Positions 1 to 50,872 of a stretch of DNA of 64,000 nt are shown one piece after another. The number at the start of each line of letters is the position of its first letter. The first letter of the stretch is position 1. The translations under genes were made by a program, and so were the position numbers. The notes under the pieces were generated by a model, which was not told the DNA's origin, made no database searches, and worked only from the letters and a program-made list of their open reading frames with translations. The stretch is from an uncultured bacterium (lineage in GTDB: Bacteria > Muiribacteriota > UBA6191), in NCBI GenBank assembly GCA_964539825.1, contig CAZIKF010000001.1, positions 22,695 through 86,694 of the forward strand. The letters run 5' to 3'.

Positions 1-487
1 CCCCAGGCTCTCTAGTGTATACCTTCCCCACTTTGAGTCCACCATCCAAGATGAGATTAAAGTTCTAAAAAAAGACTTAGAATCTCATGAACATGGTGAA
101 ATTCTGGACGTTCTAACATCACTCGAACAGGTATTTCGAGAAAAAATTCTGCCCAGAAAAAGGGCTTTGGAAGAAAATCTCGACCGATATACAACCACCA
201 ACCAACTAGTCTTGCAAGATGAACTCAAGCACCAGAAAGGACTGCTCCAAGAAGCAGACGGCTTCGATAGACCCTCCATCGAACAGTCCATTCAAAGCCT
301 TGAACAAAAGCGCCTTGCATTGAAAGAAACTGAAGATGAATTGGTCCAATTTTATTCACAGACCCGGATCATTCTTAAACAGATGGAAGAGCTCAGGACG
401 AAACTGGCAGGTCCTTCGGATCCAGGGCAACTACTTACAAGCCTTACAGACGCGAATAACCTGCTCGATGAACTCTCAGAGCTCTAG
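1..487 (+). CDS. 5'-truncated hypothetical coiled-coil protein (C-terminal about 162 aa inside window)
   Basis: Frame 2 is open from position 2 to the TAG stop at 485-487. The ORF track lists only the TTG-initiated part from 167. The translation is heptad-like and charged (…LEQKRLALKETEDELVQ…). No recognisable catalytic motif. Confidence 0.4.
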   Translation, partial: PRLSSVYLPHFESTIQDEIKVLKKDLESHEHGEILDVLTSLEQVFREKILPRKRALEENLDRYTTTNQLVLQDELKHQKGLLQEADGFDRPSIEQSIQSLEQKRLALKETEDELVQFYSQTRIILKQMEELRTKLAGPSDPGQLLTSLTDANNLLDELSEL

Positions 488-3400
488 GAAGGTTGGGAGT
501 TTGTGGACTTGTAGATCTGAAGAGTAGCCATTAACAACAGAATCAACAGCAAGAATTGAAGAATCAGTTTTAACCACATTCCTTCTAACAGCCACCAAAC
601 TGGCGTTAGCGCAATCACGACCATAGTTCTTAATAGTGGGTGAGAACGCAGTACCTGTGCCACAGCAGGTGAATTTCGATAGTAGAAGGAAACAAACTCC
701 CTTCCTAATGCTGATTTTAGCAAGAATTCATCTCGAAACCTGCAAAAACTCTTCACCGCTGGATGCTCCATAGAGCCGAACGAGGCAGTCGCAATAAAGC
801 ATCCTCCCCCTCCTCCACCGCTCACAGTGAATGGAGCCGCAGCAACAACGGCCGTGGACCGGGAAAGCTTCAAAATAAGATCATCATCATCGTCGGTCTT
901 ATTGAGGATTAAGAATGCCTTTGAGCCCTTTGGATTCACAAAGTTTTCCTGGTCAATTCTCTCCACTGCCCTCATAACTGAATCCCGTGTAAAGACTTTT
1001 GCCGGTAGCAGGGGAATGGGTATGATTTTTCCCGTTGACGTGGCTACCCCTTCAGAAATTTGAAACTTCTGGGAGGCTGAACCACCATTGGTAAGGAAAA
1101 AGAGAATCTTCAAAGGGACATCAAAGGGATTTTGGACTGTTAGAAGTTTTCCAACTCGAGCGGGAATCCTCACGACCTGGTCAAGAACAGACTGGTTTTG
1201 TAACTGGCTTTCTAGAGAGGTCAAAACCTGGGTTTCCGGATCGAGTTGAACCTGGGAGTCGGGCGGTGTCTCCAGTCCCACGGTCTCAGTCTGAGGAACG
1301 GTAAAAGAGTCGGAACCGGGCAAGAAGACCTGATCCACCCATAACATTATCTTGAAATTCTGACCTCCTCCGACACCCTCAATCTTCTCCTTTAAAATGG
1401 CTGTTCTGGGGATAACCTGAAAAAGAGTAGCATTACTTCTCAGGTCAAGGGTTCTGAAGGAGGTGGTATATTCGCGAAAGGCTAGTGTATCTTCCGGTTG
1501 TTTAGCCCTTATTTCATGGAGAGGTTCATAGATGTCCCACTCCTTGATCCCAGAGGTAGAGAGAATAGTAGCTGATGACTCCCGCCTGGTAAGCTGGGGT
1601 TGAAACAATGCTTCTTTGAAGGAGGTATAAATGGACCAGGGATCTCGCACAGCTGGGAGACTCTGCTCATCCTGCCCAACCCTTTGAATTTTTGATCTGG
1701 AGAATGCTGCTCTTCGTTCCTGAAAACTTACTGAAGTCTGAGAGAGGCCCTGAAAAACAATCGCAGCGGTCCTGGATATGGAGCCAGACTGCGCCTTTTG
1801 AACAATATAGGTAGTCGTACCCGTCCTTGGGGTTGCCTGACCAAGATCCAGACGACGGGATTTCACTGATGCCGGGTCCGAGTCCACATCCCCATCTTCA
1901 AGATCAAGTTGATCCAGAAAGGGAAAGCTCACATCCGCAGTATTTCTACGGTTTTCCAGAGAAACAAATCCCAGAGAAAAGGTGGTTAAATCCAGACGAC
2001 TTTCCGAATCAGCTCCCTCATCGACAGGAACCTCACCCGCACCGGCATCAGCTGCGCCTGCGTCTCCGCCCCCGGCATCGGCATCGGCAGCCCCGGCATC
2101 GGCGGCTCCAGCATCGGCGGCACCACCGTCCGCTCCGCCCGCATCAACCACTACCTCTTCCTCCTGCTGACCCCCAACCTGATCCGGCTCACGAATAGAA
2201 CGCGTAAAGTTAATCCCCAGCCGATTTCCCGTGCTTAAAAAGGTATCATCCACAGAAGTTATGGAATCAATATCCCTCAAGTTCAAATTTCGTATCTCAA
2301 AGAGTCCAAGCGGAGTTCTGGAGGTGGCCGATGTATCCAGAAAAATCGCACTTCCCATATCGAGGAAGTAATCCGAAAAAGTACGCTCGTCCTGGTTGGG
2401 TAAGGTATTTTGGATCTGGCGTAGAGCCTGATCCAGGGCACATATTTTATCCACGGGTACCAGGCTGTTTCTATCGCAGGTCTGTGAGGTGAAAATATTT
2501 TTTGAAAGAGCATTTCCTTCGAGAGAAAAGGATCGGATCTCGCTCTTGAGGGCTTTGACCAGAAATTCATCTCCCGCGCCTCTGACATTAGCCTCCAACT
2601 GCTCCCATATGTATAAAAAGGTCAGGAATCCCATGGCTGTGGACATTTCCTGCTGGGTAAAGTCTCTCTCCACTGCATCCAGCACCTGGGAAGCCGTGGC
2701 ACCAGCTGCAGGGACTACCGGCGGTCCCAGATCAGGGTGGAAAAGACCTGGAAGGTTGTCAATAAAATCATCTGTAGGCCTGGTGAGCTGATTGTGCGGG
2801 TGTAGATAACGCACAACCGAAAAGGGAATGGCCTGGAGAGCGGAGGAGAAGCTGCTCTGGGGAGAATTAGTACAAATGTCCCGAAAGTCACTTACAGCTC
2901 CACAGGTATTGAATAGAAACTCGGTGGAATTGTCCACGCGAAGCCCTGTTCCAATTCCTATTCTCCCTTGAAGCTCCAGGGATGTGCGGGTAGCGCGAAA
3001 TCCAAGGAAGGCTCCCATGGAGCGATCCAGCCACTTATATTCCCGTACAATATCCCCCGTGGAAATCTTTGTAGAATCAACACTATAGGGATTATGAGCC
3101 TGAAAATTTAACAAGAATTGAAACGCCTGAACAAAGGACTGATAAAAAATGAACTTGTTTCCATAGAGCTTGGCCTGTGTCTTATCGGCAGCCTCCGTCG
3201 GCAGGCCCTGGGTTGGATCTAGAAGCCCTATGTCCATGAAAATTAGATTCCCAAAGTTAGAAACCTCATTGATATTAGAGATTCCCCTGGTTCTGAGTTG
3301 GTCAAAAGGAGCGAAGTATCCCTTTGCCGATAGGGCTGGGGTGGGCGAGCCATCTTCTATGTCATAGAGAAGTACATTTAGAATCAAGCTGTTTTCCTGG

Positions 3401-3594
3401 TTGGAAAAGGGACGCTGCAGAGAAATTCCCTGTATATCCAGGATATTTTGAACCAGGCTTCGCATCGTACCCGCCACTTCCTGTAACTGCGAAGATCGAT
3501 CAGGGTCTGCTGGTGGTGAATTTTGAAAAACCACTGCTCTGGTATGATTGAAAAGGAGGATAATCAGCAGAAACAAGGAAAGAAATTGCTTCAT
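484..3594 (-). CDS. large secreted protein (1036 aa) with a shared C-terminal Gly-rich/CFIATA(S/A)FG/HPxV..RFRDE/TM-helix module; paralog of the downstream 749-aa protein
   Basis: N-terminal signal peptide (MKQFLSLFLLIILLFNHTRA). Shares an internal block with the 3591..5840 protein (LILNVLLYDIEDG…YFAPFDQ versus NILLLDIQDGFEDKGSFVGAHFLPQDQ). C-terminal GGGGGGCFIATASFGSMEHPAVKSFCRFRDEFLLK…YYRNSPAVAQ… is followed by a hydrophobic helix. The central region holds a low-complexity (DAGAA)n stretch. Confidence 0.7.
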   Translation of the reverse strand: MKQFLSLFLLIILLFNHTRAVVFQNSPPADPDRSSQLQEVAGTMRSLVQNILDIQGISLQRPFSNQENSLILNVLLYDIEDGSPTPALSAKGYFAPFDQLRTRGISNINEVSNFGNLIFMDIGLLDPTQGLPTEAADKTQAKLYGNKFIFYQSFVQAFQFLLNFQAHNPYSVDSTKISTGDIVREYKWLDRSMGAFLGFRATRTSLELQGRIGIGTGLRVDNSTEFLFNTCGAVSDFRDICTNSPQSSFSSALQAIPFSVVRYLHPHNQLTRPTDDFIDNLPGLFHPDLGPPVVPAAGATASQVLDAVERDFTQQEMSTAMGFLTFLYIWEQLEANVRGAGDEFLVKALKSEIRSFSLEGNALSKNIFTSQTCDRNSLVPVDKICALDQALRQIQNTLPNQDERTFSDYFLDMGSAIFLDTSATSRTPLGLFEIRNLNLRDIDSITSVDDTFLSTGNRLGINFTRSIREPDQVGGQQEEEVVVDAGGADGGAADAGAADAGAADADAGGGDAGAADAGAGEVPVDEGADSESRLDLTTFSLGFVSLENRRNTADVSFPFLDQLDLEDGDVDSDPASVKSRRLDLGQATPRTGTTTYIVQKAQSGSISRTAAIVFQGLSQTSVSFQERRAAFSRSKIQRVGQDEQSLPAVRDPWSIYTSFKEALFQPQLTRRESSATILSTSGIKEWDIYEPLHEIRAKQPEDTLAFREYTTSFRTLDLRSNATLFQVIPRTAILKEKIEGVGGGQNFKIMLWVDQVFLPGSDSFTVPQTETVGLETPPDSQVQLDPETQVLTSLESQLQNQSVLDQVVRIPARVGKLLTVQNPFDVPLKILFFLTNGGSASQKFQISEGVATSTGKIIPIPLLPAKVFTRDSVMRAVERIDQENFVNPKGSKAFLILNKTDDDDDLILKLSRSTAVVAAAPFTVSGGGGGGCFIATASFGSMEHPAVKSFCRFRDEFLLKSALGREFVSFYYRNSPAVAQVLRSHPLLRTMVVIALTPVWWLLEGMWLKLILQFLLLILLLMATLQIYKSTNSQPS
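2030..2160. repeat. imperfect tandem nucleotide repeat (units around ccggcatcggc[g/a]gc) inside the 1036-aa CDS, encoding (D/G)-A-G-A-A repeats
   Basis: The plus-strand sequence 2041-2150 reads caccggcatcagctgcgcc / cccggcatcggcatcggcagc / cccggcatcggcggctccagcatcggcggcacc. The minus-strand translation is GGADGGAADAGAADAGAADADAGGGDAGAADAGAG. Confidence 0.6.
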
Positions 3595-5840
3595 CGTCCT
3601 CGCCCCCTAAGGACTCTCGCGAAAAAGTAAAATACCAGCAGAAATCCAGTGAAAAAGAGAGGATTCAAAAGTACCAGGGTAAATAGGGTGAGAGGTACCA
3701 ACAAGAGCTGAATAAAGAGCTTTAAAAAAGAGGACTCAGCAATGACCCCGGCCAGTGGCGGAGAAAATAGGTAATAGAGGTTTACAAAGTCCCTTCCTGA
3801 TTTAAATTTCATCAGTATCTCATCTCTAAATCTATTAAGAATCAGAACGATGGGGTGATTCTTAGTACCATAGGCCGCCGTGGCTACAAAACATCCTCCA
3901 GCGCCTCCCCCTGCAATTGCCTGTAGCTGCTCAGCGGTAAGTCCGGCACTAAGCGAACTCGCGCTCTGCCCTAAATCTGAAAATAATTCACTGTCAAATG
4001 CGCTCACAAATAAGGAAACCGTTACCGGTTGAGTATTTTCATTATAAAACGCAATGCGTGAACGGCTTCCTTCTCTTAGTATTACGACCTTCTCATCGGT
4101 TACTGGAACAAGGGAACTAAGGGATGCTAAGGATTCAGAACGGACTTCCAGCGTGATTTGAGTCGTGATGACGCTATCCTCAAGGCTCAGGCTCACTGGA
4201 AAATTAGATGAGTTCTCTATATATAGTTCAAAAATTCCTGCCTGAGAAAGAGTAATGAGGAGATTGGAAGTGGTGCTGCTGGTAGGAACCAGGGAAGTAT
4301 CAATGGGAAAAGGAGTAGCGGGCTCTACCTCTGTTTTTGATACTGTACTTTTAGCAGAATCACTCAGAAAGAGGGAAAAGGGAACCTCCTGGGTGAAGCG
4401 GGATTCAATTTGCTGAATTCTATAATTCCGTGAATCCTGCTCAAGGTTCAGCATAAATACCCATTTTTCCACTCCTGGAGGTAGGAACTCAAAGACCGAA
4501 TCATTTAGGATAATTGTCTCTACTCGGGGATTTCCCGCGGCATCCTTACGCAGAACCTTAACATCTGATTTCCCTATCCCTGAAGGAGCGGAAAAGTGAA
4601 TTTCCCGCTGGGTAGTGCCGGAGGGATTTTCAACTCTTACAATAGAAGGTTGGAAGGCCTGGACGAGGAGAACCGGAGGATCATTTGGATCATCCAACAG
4701 AGGGTATGCAAGAAGATCCAATAGCGGTACCCGGTAAGATTCCAGGTTATATTTTGTTTCTGTGGTAGGTAGCTGTAGAGCCAGAAAATAGTCTTTGTAA
4801 AGCTCTGAAAATGTACCCAGTGCTCGGGAACTCAAAGCCAAATCCAATCCTTCAATTCCATCCAATGGCTGATCCAATATTTCTCGAAACAGGCGGTCTC
4901 CATCACTGACCCTGGATCGAAAATCTCCATCCCCTCTTTGGAAGAGATAGGTAAAGAATAGATAGGAGAAACCACGAAAGTACTCGAAGTCTTTATTATC
5001 CGCCGGCTCCCTTGGGTTTTGAAAAATTCGTACTCTGTCTAGATCACTATCTTTAAAAGGAAATACTGCTCTCATTCGTGTTATGTCCTGCAAGTATGCA
5101 TTCACTTCTACGGGAGAAGCGGTTGGGGCATCTAGAATCTTGCTTGAACTTCTGGGAAAATTTACGGAATTCAAAAAGCGGTAAACGCTATACTGGGAAA
5201 TTCCTTCCTTTACCCAGTTTTCCTCGGTCGAATCTCTCTGGTACTGGATCAGGCGGGAGAGTACACGGGTTAACTCCATATAGGTCCGCCGTTTATTTAC
5301 TAAAGCATGTTGAGCTATTCCCAGGGTTCCCGGATTCAGGTCTACATAGAGAATATTCATGCCATTCCAACCACCGGCAGGGTCTTGATCCTGGGGAAGG
5401 AAGTGAGCTCCTACAAAGGACCCTTTATCTTCAAATCCATCTTGTATGTCTAATAAAAGAATATTGAGTCCAGGAGACTGAGAGCCCGTAACTTCTTGGA
5501 TTTCAAAGAGCGTACCTTCCATGGAAGGTACGAGAACAGATTTCATCCACTCAGCGAAATCATCAAGCACAGACTGACGATCCCCCTCTACAGAAACGGG
5601 ATTAAGGAGCGAATTCAAACCATTGGCGGTCGTACCCTCAAAGAGAGAGTTTTCTACCCAAACGCTTAAATCTAAACCAGGTCTTAGAGTGGCGGTTGCT
5701 CGTACCATTGCGGAGATGGAAAGAACCTGCCCCCGGTCAAAGTCAGGGACATCAAAATCCATTACGGTACCAGAGGGTGCTCCCATTAAAATGGAAAGGG
5801 AACAGCCCAGCACCAGGAATGCCAGTAACAACTTCTTCAT
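3591..5840 (-). CDS. large secreted protein / putative lipoprotein (749 aa), paralog of the upstream 1036-aa protein with the same C-terminal anchor-like module
   Basis: Signal peptide with a lipobox-like LVLGC. C-terminus …AGGGAGGCFVATAAYGTKNHPIVLILNRFRDEILMKFKSGRDFVNLYYLFSPPLAGVIAE… followed by a TM helix and a basic tail (ARVLRGRGR). 4-nt overlap with the upstream gene. Confidence 0.7.
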   Translation of the reverse strand: MKKLLLAFLVLGCSLSILMGAPSGTVMDFDVPDFDRGQVLSISAMVRATATLRPGLDLSVWVENSLFEGTTANGLNSLLNPVSVEGDRQSVLDDFAEWMKSVLVPSMEGTLFEIQEVTGSQSPGLNILLLDIQDGFEDKGSFVGAHFLPQDQDPAGGWNGMNILYVDLNPGTLGIAQHALVNKRRTYMELTRVLSRLIQYQRDSTEENWVKEGISQYSVYRFLNSVNFPRSSSKILDAPTASPVEVNAYLQDITRMRAVFPFKDSDLDRVRIFQNPREPADNKDFEYFRGFSYLFFTYLFQRGDGDFRSRVSDGDRLFREILDQPLDGIEGLDLALSSRALGTFSELYKDYFLALQLPTTETKYNLESYRVPLLDLLAYPLLDDPNDPPVLLVQAFQPSIVRVENPSGTTQREIHFSAPSGIGKSDVKVLRKDAAGNPRVETIILNDSVFEFLPPGVEKWVFMLNLEQDSRNYRIQQIESRFTQEVPFSLFLSDSAKSTVSKTEVEPATPFPIDTSLVPTSSTTSNLLITLSQAGIFELYIENSSNFPVSLSLEDSVITTQITLEVRSESLASLSSLVPVTDEKVVILREGSRSRIAFYNENTQPVTVSLFVSAFDSELFSDLGQSASSLSAGLTAEQLQAIAGGGAGGCFVATAAYGTKNHPIVLILNRFRDEILMKFKSGRDFVNLYYLFSPPLAGVIAESSFLKLFIQLLLVPLTLFTLVLLNPLFFTGFLLVFYFFARVLRGRGR

Positions 5841-12628: not shown

Positions 12629-13387
12629 CTAATTCACTGTATACAGCAGTAATAAAGCCACTACCAGGGCAAACACACACACAGACTGAGCAACAGCCTG
12701 TCCTATTAACATTGTTCTGACGAGGGTGAATCGTAATGTTGGCTTCTTTGCTGTGCCGGCACATGATGATGCCGCAGGTAAACCACACCCAATTCCTGAG
12801 CCTATCGCACCAAGTCCAATCGATAATCCTGAACCTAATAGTGCCATTAATTTAGGCAGTCCCGGATAGACTGAGTAGTCGATGCTTAACAAGAGCAGCA
12901 GTGCAACCACAAGGCCGAAAACGGCCGGATTTCCCGCCACAGCGGAGCCGAGCAGGTGAACAAACTGAACATCACCCTGGGCACTTGGATTTCTTGATAT
13001 ACCCTCGACAGCTTTACTTCCCGTCAGCCCCATTCCAATTCCGCCGCCAATTGCGCCTAGACCCATGGCCAGCCCGCAGGATAATAGCCCCGCAGCCATA
13101 AACCAGAAGTTCTCCGTGGTAACCAAATAGGGAAGCGGTACAAAGAGTAAAAGGCAGGCAACCACCAGGGCAAAAATCGAAGCGGATTCTGTGACTGCCT
13201 GAGTTATGAGCATGGTTCTTAGAATCAATACATCCTGAACGGGTTGGCGCGCCATCCCCAAAACAGCAGAAGTAGCGGACCTAAAGGTACCCAATCCGGC
13301 GCCAATGGCACCAAAACCCATGCACAGACCAGCTGCAAGAAACTTAGCCCCCATCACGATCTCATTAGCATACTCAGAGAAGATCAT
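12629..13387 (-). CDS. fused triple-hairpin c-subunit-like proteolipid (252 aa, 6 predicted TM helices); only hairpin 1 retains the helix-2 carboxylate
   Basis: Three consecutive units, each with a GxGxGxG helix, a polar loop (ARQP / SRNP / AKKP) and a second helix. Hairpin 1 has AVTESASIFALVV, hairpin 2 has AVAGNPAVFGLVV, hairpin 3 has AVAQSVCVFALVV. Located between atpB and atpE. Confidence 0.75.
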   Translation of the reverse strand: MIFSEYANEIVMGAKFLAAGLCMGFGAIGAGLGTFRSATSAVLGMARQPVQDVLILRTMLITQAVTESASIFALVVACLLLFVPLPYLVTTENFWFMAAGLLSCGLAMGLGAIGGGIGMGLTGSKAVEGISRNPSAQGDVQFVHLLGSAVAGNPAVFGLVVALLLLLSIDYSVYPGLPKLMALLGSGLSIGLGAIGSGIGCGLPAASSCAGTAKKPTLRFTLVRTMLIGQAVAQSVCVFALVVALLLLYTVN

Positions 13388-48472: not shown

Positions 48473-50872
48473 CTACCTACCCAGATTAACTAACTGATCA
48501 AGCATCTGAGTTGCCGTATTAATTACCCTTGCTGACGCATTGAATCCCTGCTGGAACTGGATCATCTGGGTCAATTCCTCGTCTATAGACACACCACTTA
48601 CCGCCAGACGCTCATTTTCCAGTTGAGTACTGACAACTTTTGTATTTTCTTCCAGTTTAAGCATTTCCTGTGCTCTTACCCCCACGTTGGAAACCACCCC
48701 TGCATAGTAGTCGATAACACTTTGCGGCTCATCCAGAAACCGTGCATTCAAGTTTGCTGACTCGATGAGCCTCGAACCATTTCCACTGGCTCCCGACGAA
48801 ACCGTAAGATGTAAATCTGAGGCGGTGCTTCCGGCCCCTTCGCTAAAAGAAATATTCTTATCATTAGAAATCACACGAATAGTTCCTTCCGCCAGCGGAG
48901 AGAGCGTCACCCTGGAGGAAAATCCGTTGAGGTCAAGGGCTTCATTTACCTGTTCCTGTAAATCAAACAAGGTGGAATCATCATCAAAGTCTTCCAGGGT
49001 CACCACGGCATTTTTTTCACCATCGGAAACCACGAAGTTTGACTGAGACCGGCCATAATCAACACCTTCACCGGCATTAAGAGAGGAAAGTCTTGTACTA
49101 AGACCAAATTCTGTGTGCCCCACAATTCTGGCGAATTTTAATTGAGCCATTCTCAGAGCGTTTCTACCATCCCCACTACCACTACTCACGGGAACCCGAT
49201 CTCTCTCCTTCAGGAATACGCCCTGCGCCGCTGCCACCGCTGAGGTGTTGTTTTGAATAAATTCGTCCACTTGAATAGCCCTTGCCGCACCCTTTTCAAA
49301 GATATGGGCATCTGGACTCTTAAAATCTTTAAAAAAGAGTCTTTGGGAAGCGCCATCAAGTCCAAAACCCTCGTAATGTATCTTGTTAAACTCCTTGACC
49401 ATAGCGTACGCCATACGATCGAGGTCCATCATTTGACCATCGAGGTGTCTATCCTGATATTCCAATAGACCCCGAAGTTTCCCGCCAACAATGTCATGCC
49501 TGACCTTGATGTTAGTGGAACCAACCTCATTGAGAACCACGTCCACTCCCATCACGAGATCTTCAACAAAGTTTGAAGATGCCTGATAGGTTTCGCCATG
49601 GATAGCGAACCTGGCATCTCGTACCTTGCCGTCAAAGATTACATTGGCCTCACTATCAAGTTCTCTCTCATCAGAAAATCCCATCACTTCAAGAAGATTA
49701 GAAGTTCCCTCAGAGAGGACCATCTCATTGGAGGTTCCGGTTCTAAGAGATTTCATCACGAGTCTGCCTCTTTCGAAGAAAGCACTTACCCCAAGTCCGG
49801 ATTTGTTGATGGTGTCTCTTAGATCAGAGACCGTATCCTGATTCTCGATAAAGACTTGAACCCCGTTGATAAAAAAAGAACCGGTTGTGACACCCGCTGT
49901 TTCCAAGGTGGTTCCTTCCTGGAAATTATTTTTGATGTCAATCAATGCCTCGGACTGCAGTTGATGATTATTCGCGGTCTGAAAAACAGTGAGAGTGAAA
50001 TTTTGATTGTCCGCATCCCCCCCAACAAAGACATCTGCGATTCGGGGATTGTTATGGTCAGGCAGTAGAAATTCATCGGACTCCACTGACTTGAGCCCGT
50101 CTCTAAAGTTGTTTCGAATAAAGTTCAGATCATAGGACTTTCCACCCTGAACCAGAAGATGTTCTCCCACCCTGACAAATAAATTCTGATCACTGTCTTC
50201 GTGTATATCTATGTTGACCAGTTCGGATAATTCATCTAGAAGAAGATCCCTACTATCCAGAATATCATTAGGGTTTTGATCAGAATTACGCACTTTATTA
50301 ATTTCCAGATTCAAATCCGTCAGGCTTTTCGCTATCGAATTGATCCTGGTTAAATTCTGTTCAATCTCAAGATTCACATTATCTCTTTCCTGTTCAATTT
50401 TTCCGCTGGTGAAGTTTAGAAATGTAGAGAGGGATTTGGCACGCTCAATGAGCGTTACTCGGACCGAAGCCTTCTCGGGCTGATTGTTCAGATCCTCCAG
50501 GGACTGAAACATGAGATCTATGGCCGATCTGACATTGTTGTCGCTGGGTTCGTTCAAAATGGTCTGTAACTTTCCTAATCCCGTTGAAAGAGAATCTACA
50601 AAGCCTTGAAATGATTTCTGATCCCTCAACTGGTCATCGATGAATTCATCTCGAATTCTGCGAACTTCCCCCAAAGTTACTCCGGTACCAATCTGACCGG
50701 CCGCTAACCCTTCAATATTCAGCGCTTTCGTGGTCTTTAAGCTGACCACCTGGCGACTATAACCCTTGGTTTCAGCGTTGGTGATATTATGTCCCACCAC
50801 GTTGAGAGCTTGCTGGTGTGCGATGACACCCTTTTTGCCTATCTCAAGGCCTAAAAACGCTCCAAGTGACAT
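48473..50872 (-). CDS. flgK: flagellar hook-associated protein 1
   Basis: N-terminus GLEIGKKGVIAHQQALNVVGHNITNAETKGYSRQ. An internal flagellin-IN-like GSFFINGVQVFIENQDTVSDLRDTINKS. C-terminus QMIQFQQGFNASARVINTATQMLDQLVNL. Preceded by GAGGGAG. Confidence 0.9.
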   Translation of the reverse strand: MSLGAFLGLEIGKKGVIAHQQALNVVGHNITNAETKGYSRQVVSLKTTKALNIEGLAAGQIGTGVTLGEVRRIRDEFIDDQLRDQKSFQGFVDSLSTGLGKLQTILNEPSDNNVRSAIDLMFQSLEDLNNQPEKASVRVTLIERAKSLSTFLNFTSGKIEQERDNVNLEIEQNLTRINSIAKSLTDLNLEINKVRNSDQNPNDILDSRDLLLDELSELVNIDIHEDSDQNLFVRVGEHLLVQGGKSYDLNFIRNNFRDGLKSVESDEFLLPDHNNPRIADVFVGGDADNQNFTLTVFQTANNHQLQSEALIDIKNNFQEGTTLETAGVTTGSFFINGVQVFIENQDTVSDLRDTINKSGLGVSAFFERGRLVMKSLRTGTSNEMVLSEGTSNLLEVMGFSDERELDSEANVIFDGKVRDARFAIHGETYQASSNFVEDLVMGVDVVLNEVGSTNIKVRHDIVGGKLRGLLEYQDRHLDGQMMDLDRMAYAMVKEFNKIHYEGFGLDGASQRLFFKDFKSPDAHIFEKGAARAIQVDEFIQNNTSAVAAAQGVFLKERDRVPVSSGSGDGRNALRMAQLKFARIVGHTEFGLSTRLSSLNAGEGVDYGRSQSNFVVSDGEKNAVVTLEDFDDDSTLFDLQEQVNEALDLNGFSSRVTLSPLAEGTIRVISNDKNISFSEGAGSTASDLHLTVSSGASGNGSRLIESANLNARFLDEPQSVIDYYAGVVSNVGVRAQEMLKLEENTKVVSTQLENERLAVSGVSIDEELTQMIQFQQGFNASARVINTATQMLDQLVNLGR

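Follow-up and report, generated by a model that had tools for sequence, protein, structure and literature searches.

Two neighboring genes near one end of a 64,000-nucleotide stretch of DNA from an uncultured Muiribacteriota bacterium (contig CAZIKF010000001.1 of assembly GCA_964539825.1, positions 22,695 to 86,694; hereafter the window) encode large proteins, here called A (1036 amino acids, aa) and B (749 aa), which are new members of a known protein family, CFI-box-CTERM. Using profile searches, comparison of gene neighborhoods, and structure prediction, we arrived at a reading that we favor with modest confidence: A and B would be two membrane-tethered pseudopeptidases of the M30 type that are retained by the CFI-box module at their C-termini, possibly as partners of an active paralog that is encoded elsewhere. 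This reading builds on the family to which the modules belong, the make-up of the domains, the lost catalytic motif, and a conserved gene order, each of which the results below establish. It gives an annotation to two genes so far called "hypothetical" and offers a candidate partner for them, namely the intact paralog that is found upstream of the pair in relatives.

We found the C-terminal modules of A and B to align over 68 aa without a gap and at 43% identity (BLASTP E = 5e-15), while a comparison of their family profiles by hhalign gave an E-value of 5.8e-27, which upheld the significance of the similarity on which the first-pass annotation of this DNA had staked its claim of a shared module. 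Scanning with the NCBIfam model NF041770 ("CFI-box-CTERM"), for which the curated cut-off is 40 bits, yielded 80.1 bits for A (aa 932-999) and 74.9 bits for B (aa 650-717), in both cases across profile positions 1-68 of 69. Judged by these scores, the shared tail is homologous and belongs to an already named family rather than to a new kind of sorting signal; the first-pass annotation had been unable to place it in any named sorting-signal family. That the likeness between the two C-termini arose by chance in unrelated genes, through the compositional bias of Gly runs and hydrophobic tails, is hardly credible and is refuted by the NF041770 scores together with the BLASTP and hhalign E-values, as the gap-free alignment lies outside the Gly run, both copies score ~35-40 bits over the cut-off, and the N-terminal domains are homologous as well.

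The two copies are the only CF[IV]AT modules in the window. The full signature (C-F-[IV]-A-T-A, G9, R-D, G33, Y-Y, S-P, and A48, numbered from the Cys) is present in A, B, and their homologues, and A and B share with NF041770 the CF[IV]ATA, FRD, and YY.xSP motifs as well as the C-terminal position, from which they differ in small and inessential ways: B has CFV in place of CFI, and A has SPA in place of SPP and a weakly basic tail. From the end of the core to the stop codon there are 32 aa in B and 37 aa in A, which puts the module at the extreme C-terminus of both. A strongly basic tail (RGRGR) is seen in B only; A ends in YKSTNSQPS, and the homologues of A end in RSR, KRR, or RFRRR. The layout reported at first pass, i.e., a Gly run, CF[IV]ATA, FRD, YY..SP, a hydrophobic segment ~60 aa past the Cys, and a basic tail in one of the two proteins, was accurate in all these parts. 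Ahead of the CFI Cys, the B family carries the motif L[ST]xE[EQ]LxxIAGGGxGG, which occurs neither in A nor in 224 other CFI-box proteins. This linker motif resembles the end of double-glycine leaders (Nif11/NHLP/CCRG-2); we rejected that assignment because NF033456 scores it at 18.6 bits, below the cut-off of 24, and because it lies at aa 634-646 of 749 rather than at the N-terminus.

CFI-box-CTERM is a very common family. Searching with a profile built from eleven modules, one of a beta-propeller protein and the others of A, B, and their homologues, we matched the representatives of 28,043 clusters (50% identity) at E ≤ 1e-3 and of 20,923 at E ≤ 1e-10, with the match nearly always at the extreme C-terminus, including nearly all of the best 150. 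Species-representative genomes contained at least 576 confirmed CFI-box loci, and the best 80 of these include Geobacteraceae, other Desulfobacterota, Nitrospirota, Gammaproteobacteria, Omnitrophota, Spirochaetota, and Chloroflexi; archaeal members are found in Methanosarcinaceae and Haloquadratum. Among 67 full-length members, the passengers comprise Ig-like/ASH/PKD arrays, S8 subtilases, M6 peptidases, GDSL lipases, DUF11, and He_PIG. As far as these domains tell, the passengers are typical surface or secreted cargo and the module is portable and anchor-like. A search of phages for the module returned one unannotated record. The CFI-box-CTERM name is already in use in RefSeq annotation, Pfam is without a model for the module, and a full-text literature search for the family name, NF041770, and the motif brought up no relevant paper, despite the spread of the family over bacteria and archaea and its extreme conservation. 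We treat the family as named and, as far as this search shows, not experimentally characterised. The module hence did not turn out to be a domain that is well characterised and known for a role other than sorting, the outcome that the first-pass annotation had set against its own proposal.

Numbering positions from the Cys in 247 sequences, we found the first ~70 positions of the module to align without insertions or deletions. C1, F2, T5, G9, and Y40 are invariant, and A4, A6, R23, D24, G33, Y41, S44, P45, and A48 are near-invariant (at least 245 of the 247 sequences, with R23 in 246 and D24 in 245), while R58 and R62 are mostly basic residues. A hydrophobic stretch that starts ~60 aa after the Cys spans positions ~63-91 with a mild break at ~73-79, and the tail has a mean net charge of +3.6 across its final 15 residues. 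On the other side of the Cys, Gly stands at position -1 in 242 of 254 sequences, and at least four of the six residues before the Cys are Gly in 92.5%. A metal site was considered and rejected: of the candidate ligands, Cys1 and Asp24 are conserved, but those at positions 13, 15, 54, and 55 vary. AlphaFold2 (AF2) predicted an all-helical module with a predicted local distance difference test (pLDDT) score of 93-98 inside full-length B and of 87 when modeled alone (predicted template modeling score 0.68). In the model, CFVATAAY forms a short helix, V..LRxFRDxxL and GRxFVxxYYxxSPPxAxxI are covered by two more, and a pair of hydrophobic helices of ~20 residues each follows; this fold found no relative among solved structures.

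For A and B, we propose the following mechanism. The two genes would form a translationally coupled operon, and both products would be exported by the Sec pathway. Their N-terminal domains would have descended from a zinc metallopeptidase of the M30 type (lugdulysin/hyicolysin-like), and the CFI-box module would tether each protein to the cytoplasmic membrane on its outer side. The module would consist of a flexible linker of Gly residues, a compact helical core that runs for ~55-70 aa from the invariant Cys, a hydrophobic membrane segment, and a basic cytoplasmic tail. It would mainly act as a retained anchor and juxtamembrane interaction domain rather than as a cleaved sortase-type signal, and the dead peptidase domains would bind ligands or partner an active paralog without any cleavage of their own.

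Export is suggested by the N-termini of A and B, which open with a short basic stretch, continue with a hydrophobic one, and look like Sec signal peptides by inspection (MKQFLSLFLLIILLFNHTRA / MKKLLLAFLVLGCSLSILMG); signal peptides and topology were assigned by eye and by the fusion argument given below. The homologues of B retain a hydrophobic N-terminus that ends in A-x-A/S and do not retain the Cys at aa 13, which points to a putative type I signal peptide rather than one of the lipoprotein type. B does carry VLGC at aa 10-13, but we rejected a lipoprotein reading because every homologue either lacks this Cys or has it at another position, and A has no lipobox ([LVI][ASTVI][GAS]C) at the end of its signal peptide.

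Regarding topology, the passenger and the CFI core would lie outside and the tail inside. The core should be outside because there is no membrane-spanning hydrophobicity between the exported passenger and the core. The location of the tail is suggested by three in-frame fusions (P0132, P0134, and P0200), in which the basic tail of the module continues straight into the hydrophobic region of a next signal peptide; P0132 is a fused pair of a B-like and an A-like protein, and the second signal peptide of P0200 has a lipobox. These may be true two-passenger proteins or products of lost stop codons. As the basic n-region of signal peptides is cytoplasmic, the fusions would place the tail inside and therefore imply an odd number of membrane crossings.

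An unlikely competitor is that the CFI-box is a true sorting signal: a dedicated enzyme whose gene lies elsewhere would read the core, cleave at the Gly|Cys junction or close to it, and attach the passenger to a lipid or a cell-envelope polymer, in the manner of sortase, exosortase, rhombosortase, or myxosortase, or of the C-terminal domain of the type IX secretion system that is handled by PorU. Tripartite signals of this kind (LPXTG for sortase, PEP-CTERM for exosortase, GlyGly-CTERM for rhombosortase, and MYXO-CTERM) have a motif of 3-6 residues that abuts the transmembrane (TM) segment, and MYXO-CTERM has an invariant Cys. The CFI-box shares much with them: it is C-terminal and portable, and its secreted passengers are many and unrelated; it combines a motif, a hydrophobic segment, and a basic tail into a tripartite layout; its Cys is invariant, like that of MYXO-CTERM, and comes after a flexible Gly linker; and the conservation of the core over ~28,000 clusters suggests a conserved recognition machinery. 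It differs in that its signature is a folded helical domain of ~70 aa instead of a short motif next to the TM segment, from which the signature lies ~60 aa away, with the folded domain in between. Furthermore, all-against-all clustering of 933 open reading frames (ORFs) from 80 CFI-box loci (±10 kb) gave no neighbor family common to diverse lineages and revealed lineage-specific synteny only (e.g., housekeeping genes in Geobacteraceae), and the annotated parts of the window, which hold an ATP synthase operon, ybaB, mur genes and ftsW, flagellar genes, and an M17 peptidase, contain no candidate sorting protease or transpeptidase. The co-occurring sorting enzyme that the first-pass annotation had suggested looking for was thus not seen as a conserved neighbor in the 80 loci, nor in the annotated parts of the window. 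As the family spans many bacterial phyla and archaea, a partner enzyme would therefore need an equal spread.

A further difference from signals of the sortase and exosortase type, which should be confined to exported proteins, is that the CFI-box also occurs on proteins that are not exported. Upon searching plasmids by tblastn, we found the CFI-box core, at 67-90 bits for NF041770, in proteins that have neither a signal peptide nor a TM helix. These include fusions of a cold-shock domain, a zinc ribbon, and the CFI-box in Burkholderia and Comamonadaceae; of Mrr_cat, WYL, and the CFI-box on Haloquadratum PL47; of TPR and the CFI-box on small plasmids of Acinetobacter lwoffii; and of CAP and the CFI-box in Paracoccus, in addition to small CFI-box proteins of ~140 aa in Rhodanobacter and Denitratisoma. 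Because such members exist, the CFI core is not solely a signal of exported proteins, and an extracytoplasmic sorting enzyme could not act on the cold-shock, Mrr+WYL, and TPR proteins, since they are without signal peptide and TM helix. The conserved core would appear to function in the cytoplasm too, which is hard to reconcile with a signal that is read only by an extracytoplasmic sorting enzyme. Of the first-pass comparison with sorting signals, the idea of an anchor-like C-terminal unit holds, as the module is portable and found on many unrelated surface-protein bodies, whereas the analogy with sortase and exosortase signals gained no support from the tests made here, given the motif ~60 aa off the membrane, the lack of a neighboring enzyme, and the cytoplasmic members. 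The plasmid proteins possibly play a role in mobile-element conflict: their genes lie amid those for Lar anti-restriction, restriction endonuclease, Cas4-like, Fic/VbhA, and zeta-toxin proteins. The cold-shock and zinc-ribbon protein shows weak similarity to a retron Se72 effector.

Two broad options could accommodate members in both compartments, namely a general membrane-interface or self-association domain, or a self-contained processing unit around the invariant Cys. In its more general form, which we regard as quite improbable, the second option makes the CFI-box a compact helical processing module for either compartment, with Cys1 as the site of a self-catalysed or enzyme-assisted cleavage or transfer. 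If true, this would explain why one 70-aa core ends thousands of exported surface proteins as well as cytoplasmic cold-shock and Mrr+WYL proteins of plasmids, and the CFI-box would represent a new protein-processing chemistry and not an anchor. In its strict form, which we deem very improbable, Cys1 attacks the preceding peptide bond by an N-to-S acyl shift, as in Hedgehog proteins and inteins, and thereby releases or transfers the passenger in either compartment. It is consistent with this form that the domain starts exactly at the invariant Cys after a flexible linker, be it the Gly run of exported proteins or the shorter GGGSQ|C, DDS|C, and KG|C contexts of cytoplasmic ones, that Thr5 is invariant and Arg23 and Asp24 are near-invariant, and that the thiol is conserved in both compartments. 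Because of this last point, Lgt-type lipidation or a disulfide poorly explains the Cys. The cleavage site of Hedgehog is also G|CF, and a Gly|Cys-Phe junction opens the C-terminal domain after a linker in either system. Against autoprocessing, the fold of ~70 aa is small and all-helical, whereas the Hint domains of Hedgehog proteins and inteins are beta-rich, at ~150 aa about twice as large, and without structural or sequence similarity to the CFI-box, which lacks the Hint beta-fold with its conserved blocks A and B. There is also no conserved set of His or Asn like that of known autoprocessing sites, positions 13, 15, and 54 being variable. Any mechanism is subject to three constraints: a confidently predicted small helical fold without a solved relative, no adjoining conserved sorting enzyme, and an occurrence on cytoplasmic proteins that lack a TM helix.

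Returning to the tethered pseudopeptidases that we favor, the peptidase ancestry of the N-terminal bodies was suggested by profile comparison. A profile of the B family (B and 5 homologues) matched lugdulysin (PDB 7bb8/7bb9, "neutral metalloprotease"), which we take to be an M30-family enzyme, at E = 1e-9, and the A profile matched the same region at E ~ 0.2. A third paralog, in a related locus (L086, assembly GCA_023954715.1), connects these matches: located directly upstream of a B-like and an A-like gene, it encodes 789 aa in which HEFQH...WLNEGLSQ is intact and the box is of a variant CFL type (65 bits for NF041770), and it aligns with lugdulysin at 1.5e-12, with its HEFQH on HEYQH. In BLASTP, B matches this paralog (L086:7467-9836) at E = 2e-36 (28% over 326 aa) and the N-terminus of A does so at E = 2e-5. 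Compared directly, A 32-109 and B 87-162 align at E = 0.001, and their profiles, with the C-termini cut off, align at E = 2.3e-5 over 141 columns (hhalign), with a collinear second block at E = 0.026. On these alignments, the bodies of A and B are real but distant paralogs; the first-pass description of tandem, apparently exported, paralogous large proteins stands, with the ORFs as reported, and their shared internal block is real but weak.

The HExxH catalytic motif has been lost from both proteins. In the gap-free alignment of B with LAHEFQHLL...WLNEGLSQF of the intact paralog, RVLSR occupies the HExxH position, and its two Arg residues (R192 and R196) are invariant in B and its 5 homologues; one further relative (L096) has RALGY. 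The equivalent of the third zinc ligand, Glu212, is invariant across the B family. In A, QAFQF stands where HExxH is expected, and the Glu ligand has been replaced by Arg (WLDRSMG). Because RVLSR and QAFQF sit at the HExxH position, B and A are predicted to be pseudopeptidases that are catalytically dead through loss of HExxH. The initial register of HMMER, which had placed RTYxE of B on HEYQH of lugdulysin, was superseded by the gap-free alignment with the closer intact paralog. Relative to the M30 family (lugdulysin and hyicolysin-like neutral metalloproteases), the B profile and the intact paralog align over the catalytic region, including the HExxH helix and W-x-N-E-[GA], but B and A have lost HExxH and A its Glu ligand in addition, and lugdulysin is without the long beta-rich extensions and the CFI-box of A and B. 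The first-pass annotation had raised a protease fold as one possibility for the bodies; a protease-type fold was found (M30, with E = 1e-9 to lugdulysin for B), and its catalytic motif is gone.

Intact HE[FMI]QH paralogs are also present in loci L095, L096, and L097, in one case (L096:8007-10340) directly upstream of the pair and, as in L086, with a CFI- or CFL-box. In the lineage of the window, this position is occupied instead by ybaB and the ATP synthase operon, and the 64 kb of the window contain no intact HExxH copy. A metagenome scan with the intact paralog alone yielded no match, and a scan with an alignment yielded three loci.

Several points weigh against the reading of A and B as retained, membrane-tethered pseudopeptidases. 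The two ~20-residue hydrophobic helices of the AF2 model allow a hairpin, and if both were to span the membrane, the basic tail would possibly lie outside. The near-invariant Gly-Gly|Cys and the extreme conservation of the 70-aa core exceed the needs of a passive anchor and would suit a site of cleavage or modification. Retention of the module on the protein is presumed, and its topology is deduced from inspection and from the fusion argument. Finally, the peptidase fold is derived from sequence profiles, because the body of B was poorly modeled and Pfam is silent: AF2 of full-length B, with an alignment of 6 full-length homologues, gave a pLDDT mostly below 50 for the body, Foldseek on this model returned no significant fold match, and Pfam scans of A, B, and all homologues returned only a sub-threshold match to the GH30 beta-sandwich and noise, with no model detecting a peptidase fold. 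The C-terminal halves of A and B are predicted to be beta-rich and are partly modeled, the pLDDT of this region in B being 70-89 for aa ~500-560 and 590-620 only.

Table 1. Features of genes A and B, and plasmid loci of CFI-box proteins without a TM helix. Positions are those of the window except in the last row, where they follow the locus.
Feature	Positions	Strand	Description or basis
Convergent gene, 3' part	1..487	+	ORF; the 3' ends of this gene and A share 4 bp; adjoins the B-A pair in relatives
Gene A	484..3594	-	Signal peptide, more degenerate M30-like domain, acidic low-complexity linker, beta-rich region, Gly run, CFI-box, TM segment
A distal hydrophobic helix and short, weakly basic tail, aa 1000-1036	487..597	-	Translation
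A CFI-box core, aa 932-999, from Cys932 after GGGGGG	598..801	-	NF041770
A Gly/Ala/Asp-rich acidic low-complexity linker, aa ~470-530	2005..2187	-	Translation
A degenerate M30-like domain (predicted), aa ~27-422	2329..3516	-	hhalign against the B family, BLASTP against the intact paralog, lugdulysin profile region
ATGA, TGA stop of B overlapping ATG of A	3591..3594	-	4-base overlap recurs in gene coordinates of relatives
Gene B	3591..5840	-	Signal peptide, M30-like pseudopeptidase domain, beta-rich region, Gly linker, CFI-box, TM segment, basic tail
B distal hydrophobic helix and basic tail, aa 718-749, ...ARVLRGRGR	3594..3689	-	Translation, AF2
B CFI-box core, aa 650-717, from invariant Cys650	3690..3893	-	NF041770; AF2 pLDDT 93-98
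B linker, aa 632-649, short helix LTAEQLQAIA then GGGAGG	3894..3947	-	Translation, AF2
B beta-rich region, aa ~390-620, probably beta-sandwich domains	3981..4673	-	AF2 strands
B M30-like (lugdulysin-like) metallopeptidase-fold domain (predicted), aa ~58-361, catalytically degenerate	4758..5669	-	Profile and BLASTP
B Glu212 (WVKEGISQ), equivalent of the third zinc ligand, retained	5205..5207	-	Aligned with WLNEALS (lugdulysin) and WLNEGLS (intact paralog)
B R192-V-L-S-R196 in place of HExxH	5253..5267	-	Gap-free register against LAHEFQHLL...WLNEGLSQF of the intact paralog
B signal-peptide-like N-terminus, aa 1-20	5781..5840	-	Inspection of translation
TM-less plasmid CFI-box loci	L088:3653-4234, L094:2608-3249, L091:2218-3252, L089:1333-2184, L092:2788-3222, L093:2818-3228		

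Genes A and B lie head to tail on the minus strand, with B upstream (Table 1). GAGGA stands 5 nt ahead of the start codon of A and, together with the ATGA overlap, is a usual sign of translational coupling, which we propose for B and A from the sequence. Scans with Rfam and for promoters and terminators gave no signal above background. The convergent gene on the other side of A encodes a complete product of 226 aa with a TM segment at the N-terminus and a coiled-coil-like remainder, for which a Pfam scan was without a match. This array, i.e., B, A with the 4-bp overlap, the convergent gene of ~230 aa, and then two large genes, is kept in relatives down to 40% identity; the two large genes, which encode a HEAT/guanylate-cyclase protein of ~960 aa and a TPR protein of ~870 aa, stand beside the pair in all relatives examined. 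The B/A protein family is rare: among 5.8 billion proteins, we found 6 homologues of B, at 40-100% identity, and 3 of A (P0007-P0009). A protein identical to B is present in public assemblies, and one relative carries the label Cloacimonetes. The low-complexity linker of A is partly encoded by 15/21-bp tandem repeats at 2070-2125, and its length and composition vary among the homologues of A.

Two further observations concern other parts of the window. On the minus strand, a 2048-aa ORF (42306..48452) with Flagellin_N as its sole Pfam match comes directly after a gene for a FlgK-like protein of 799 aa (48473..50872, minus strand); its flgL position, at ~6 times the usual size of FlgL, suggests a giant hook-associated or flagellin-like protein. 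Inside the ATP synthase operon, where genes matching ATPase_gene1 and ATP-synt_I come first, a gene on the minus strand (12629..13387) encodes a 252-aa product that matches ATP-synt_C, normally of ~80 aa, and adjoins an ordinary c-subunit gene of 88 aa; this product may be a multiplied or fused c-subunit.

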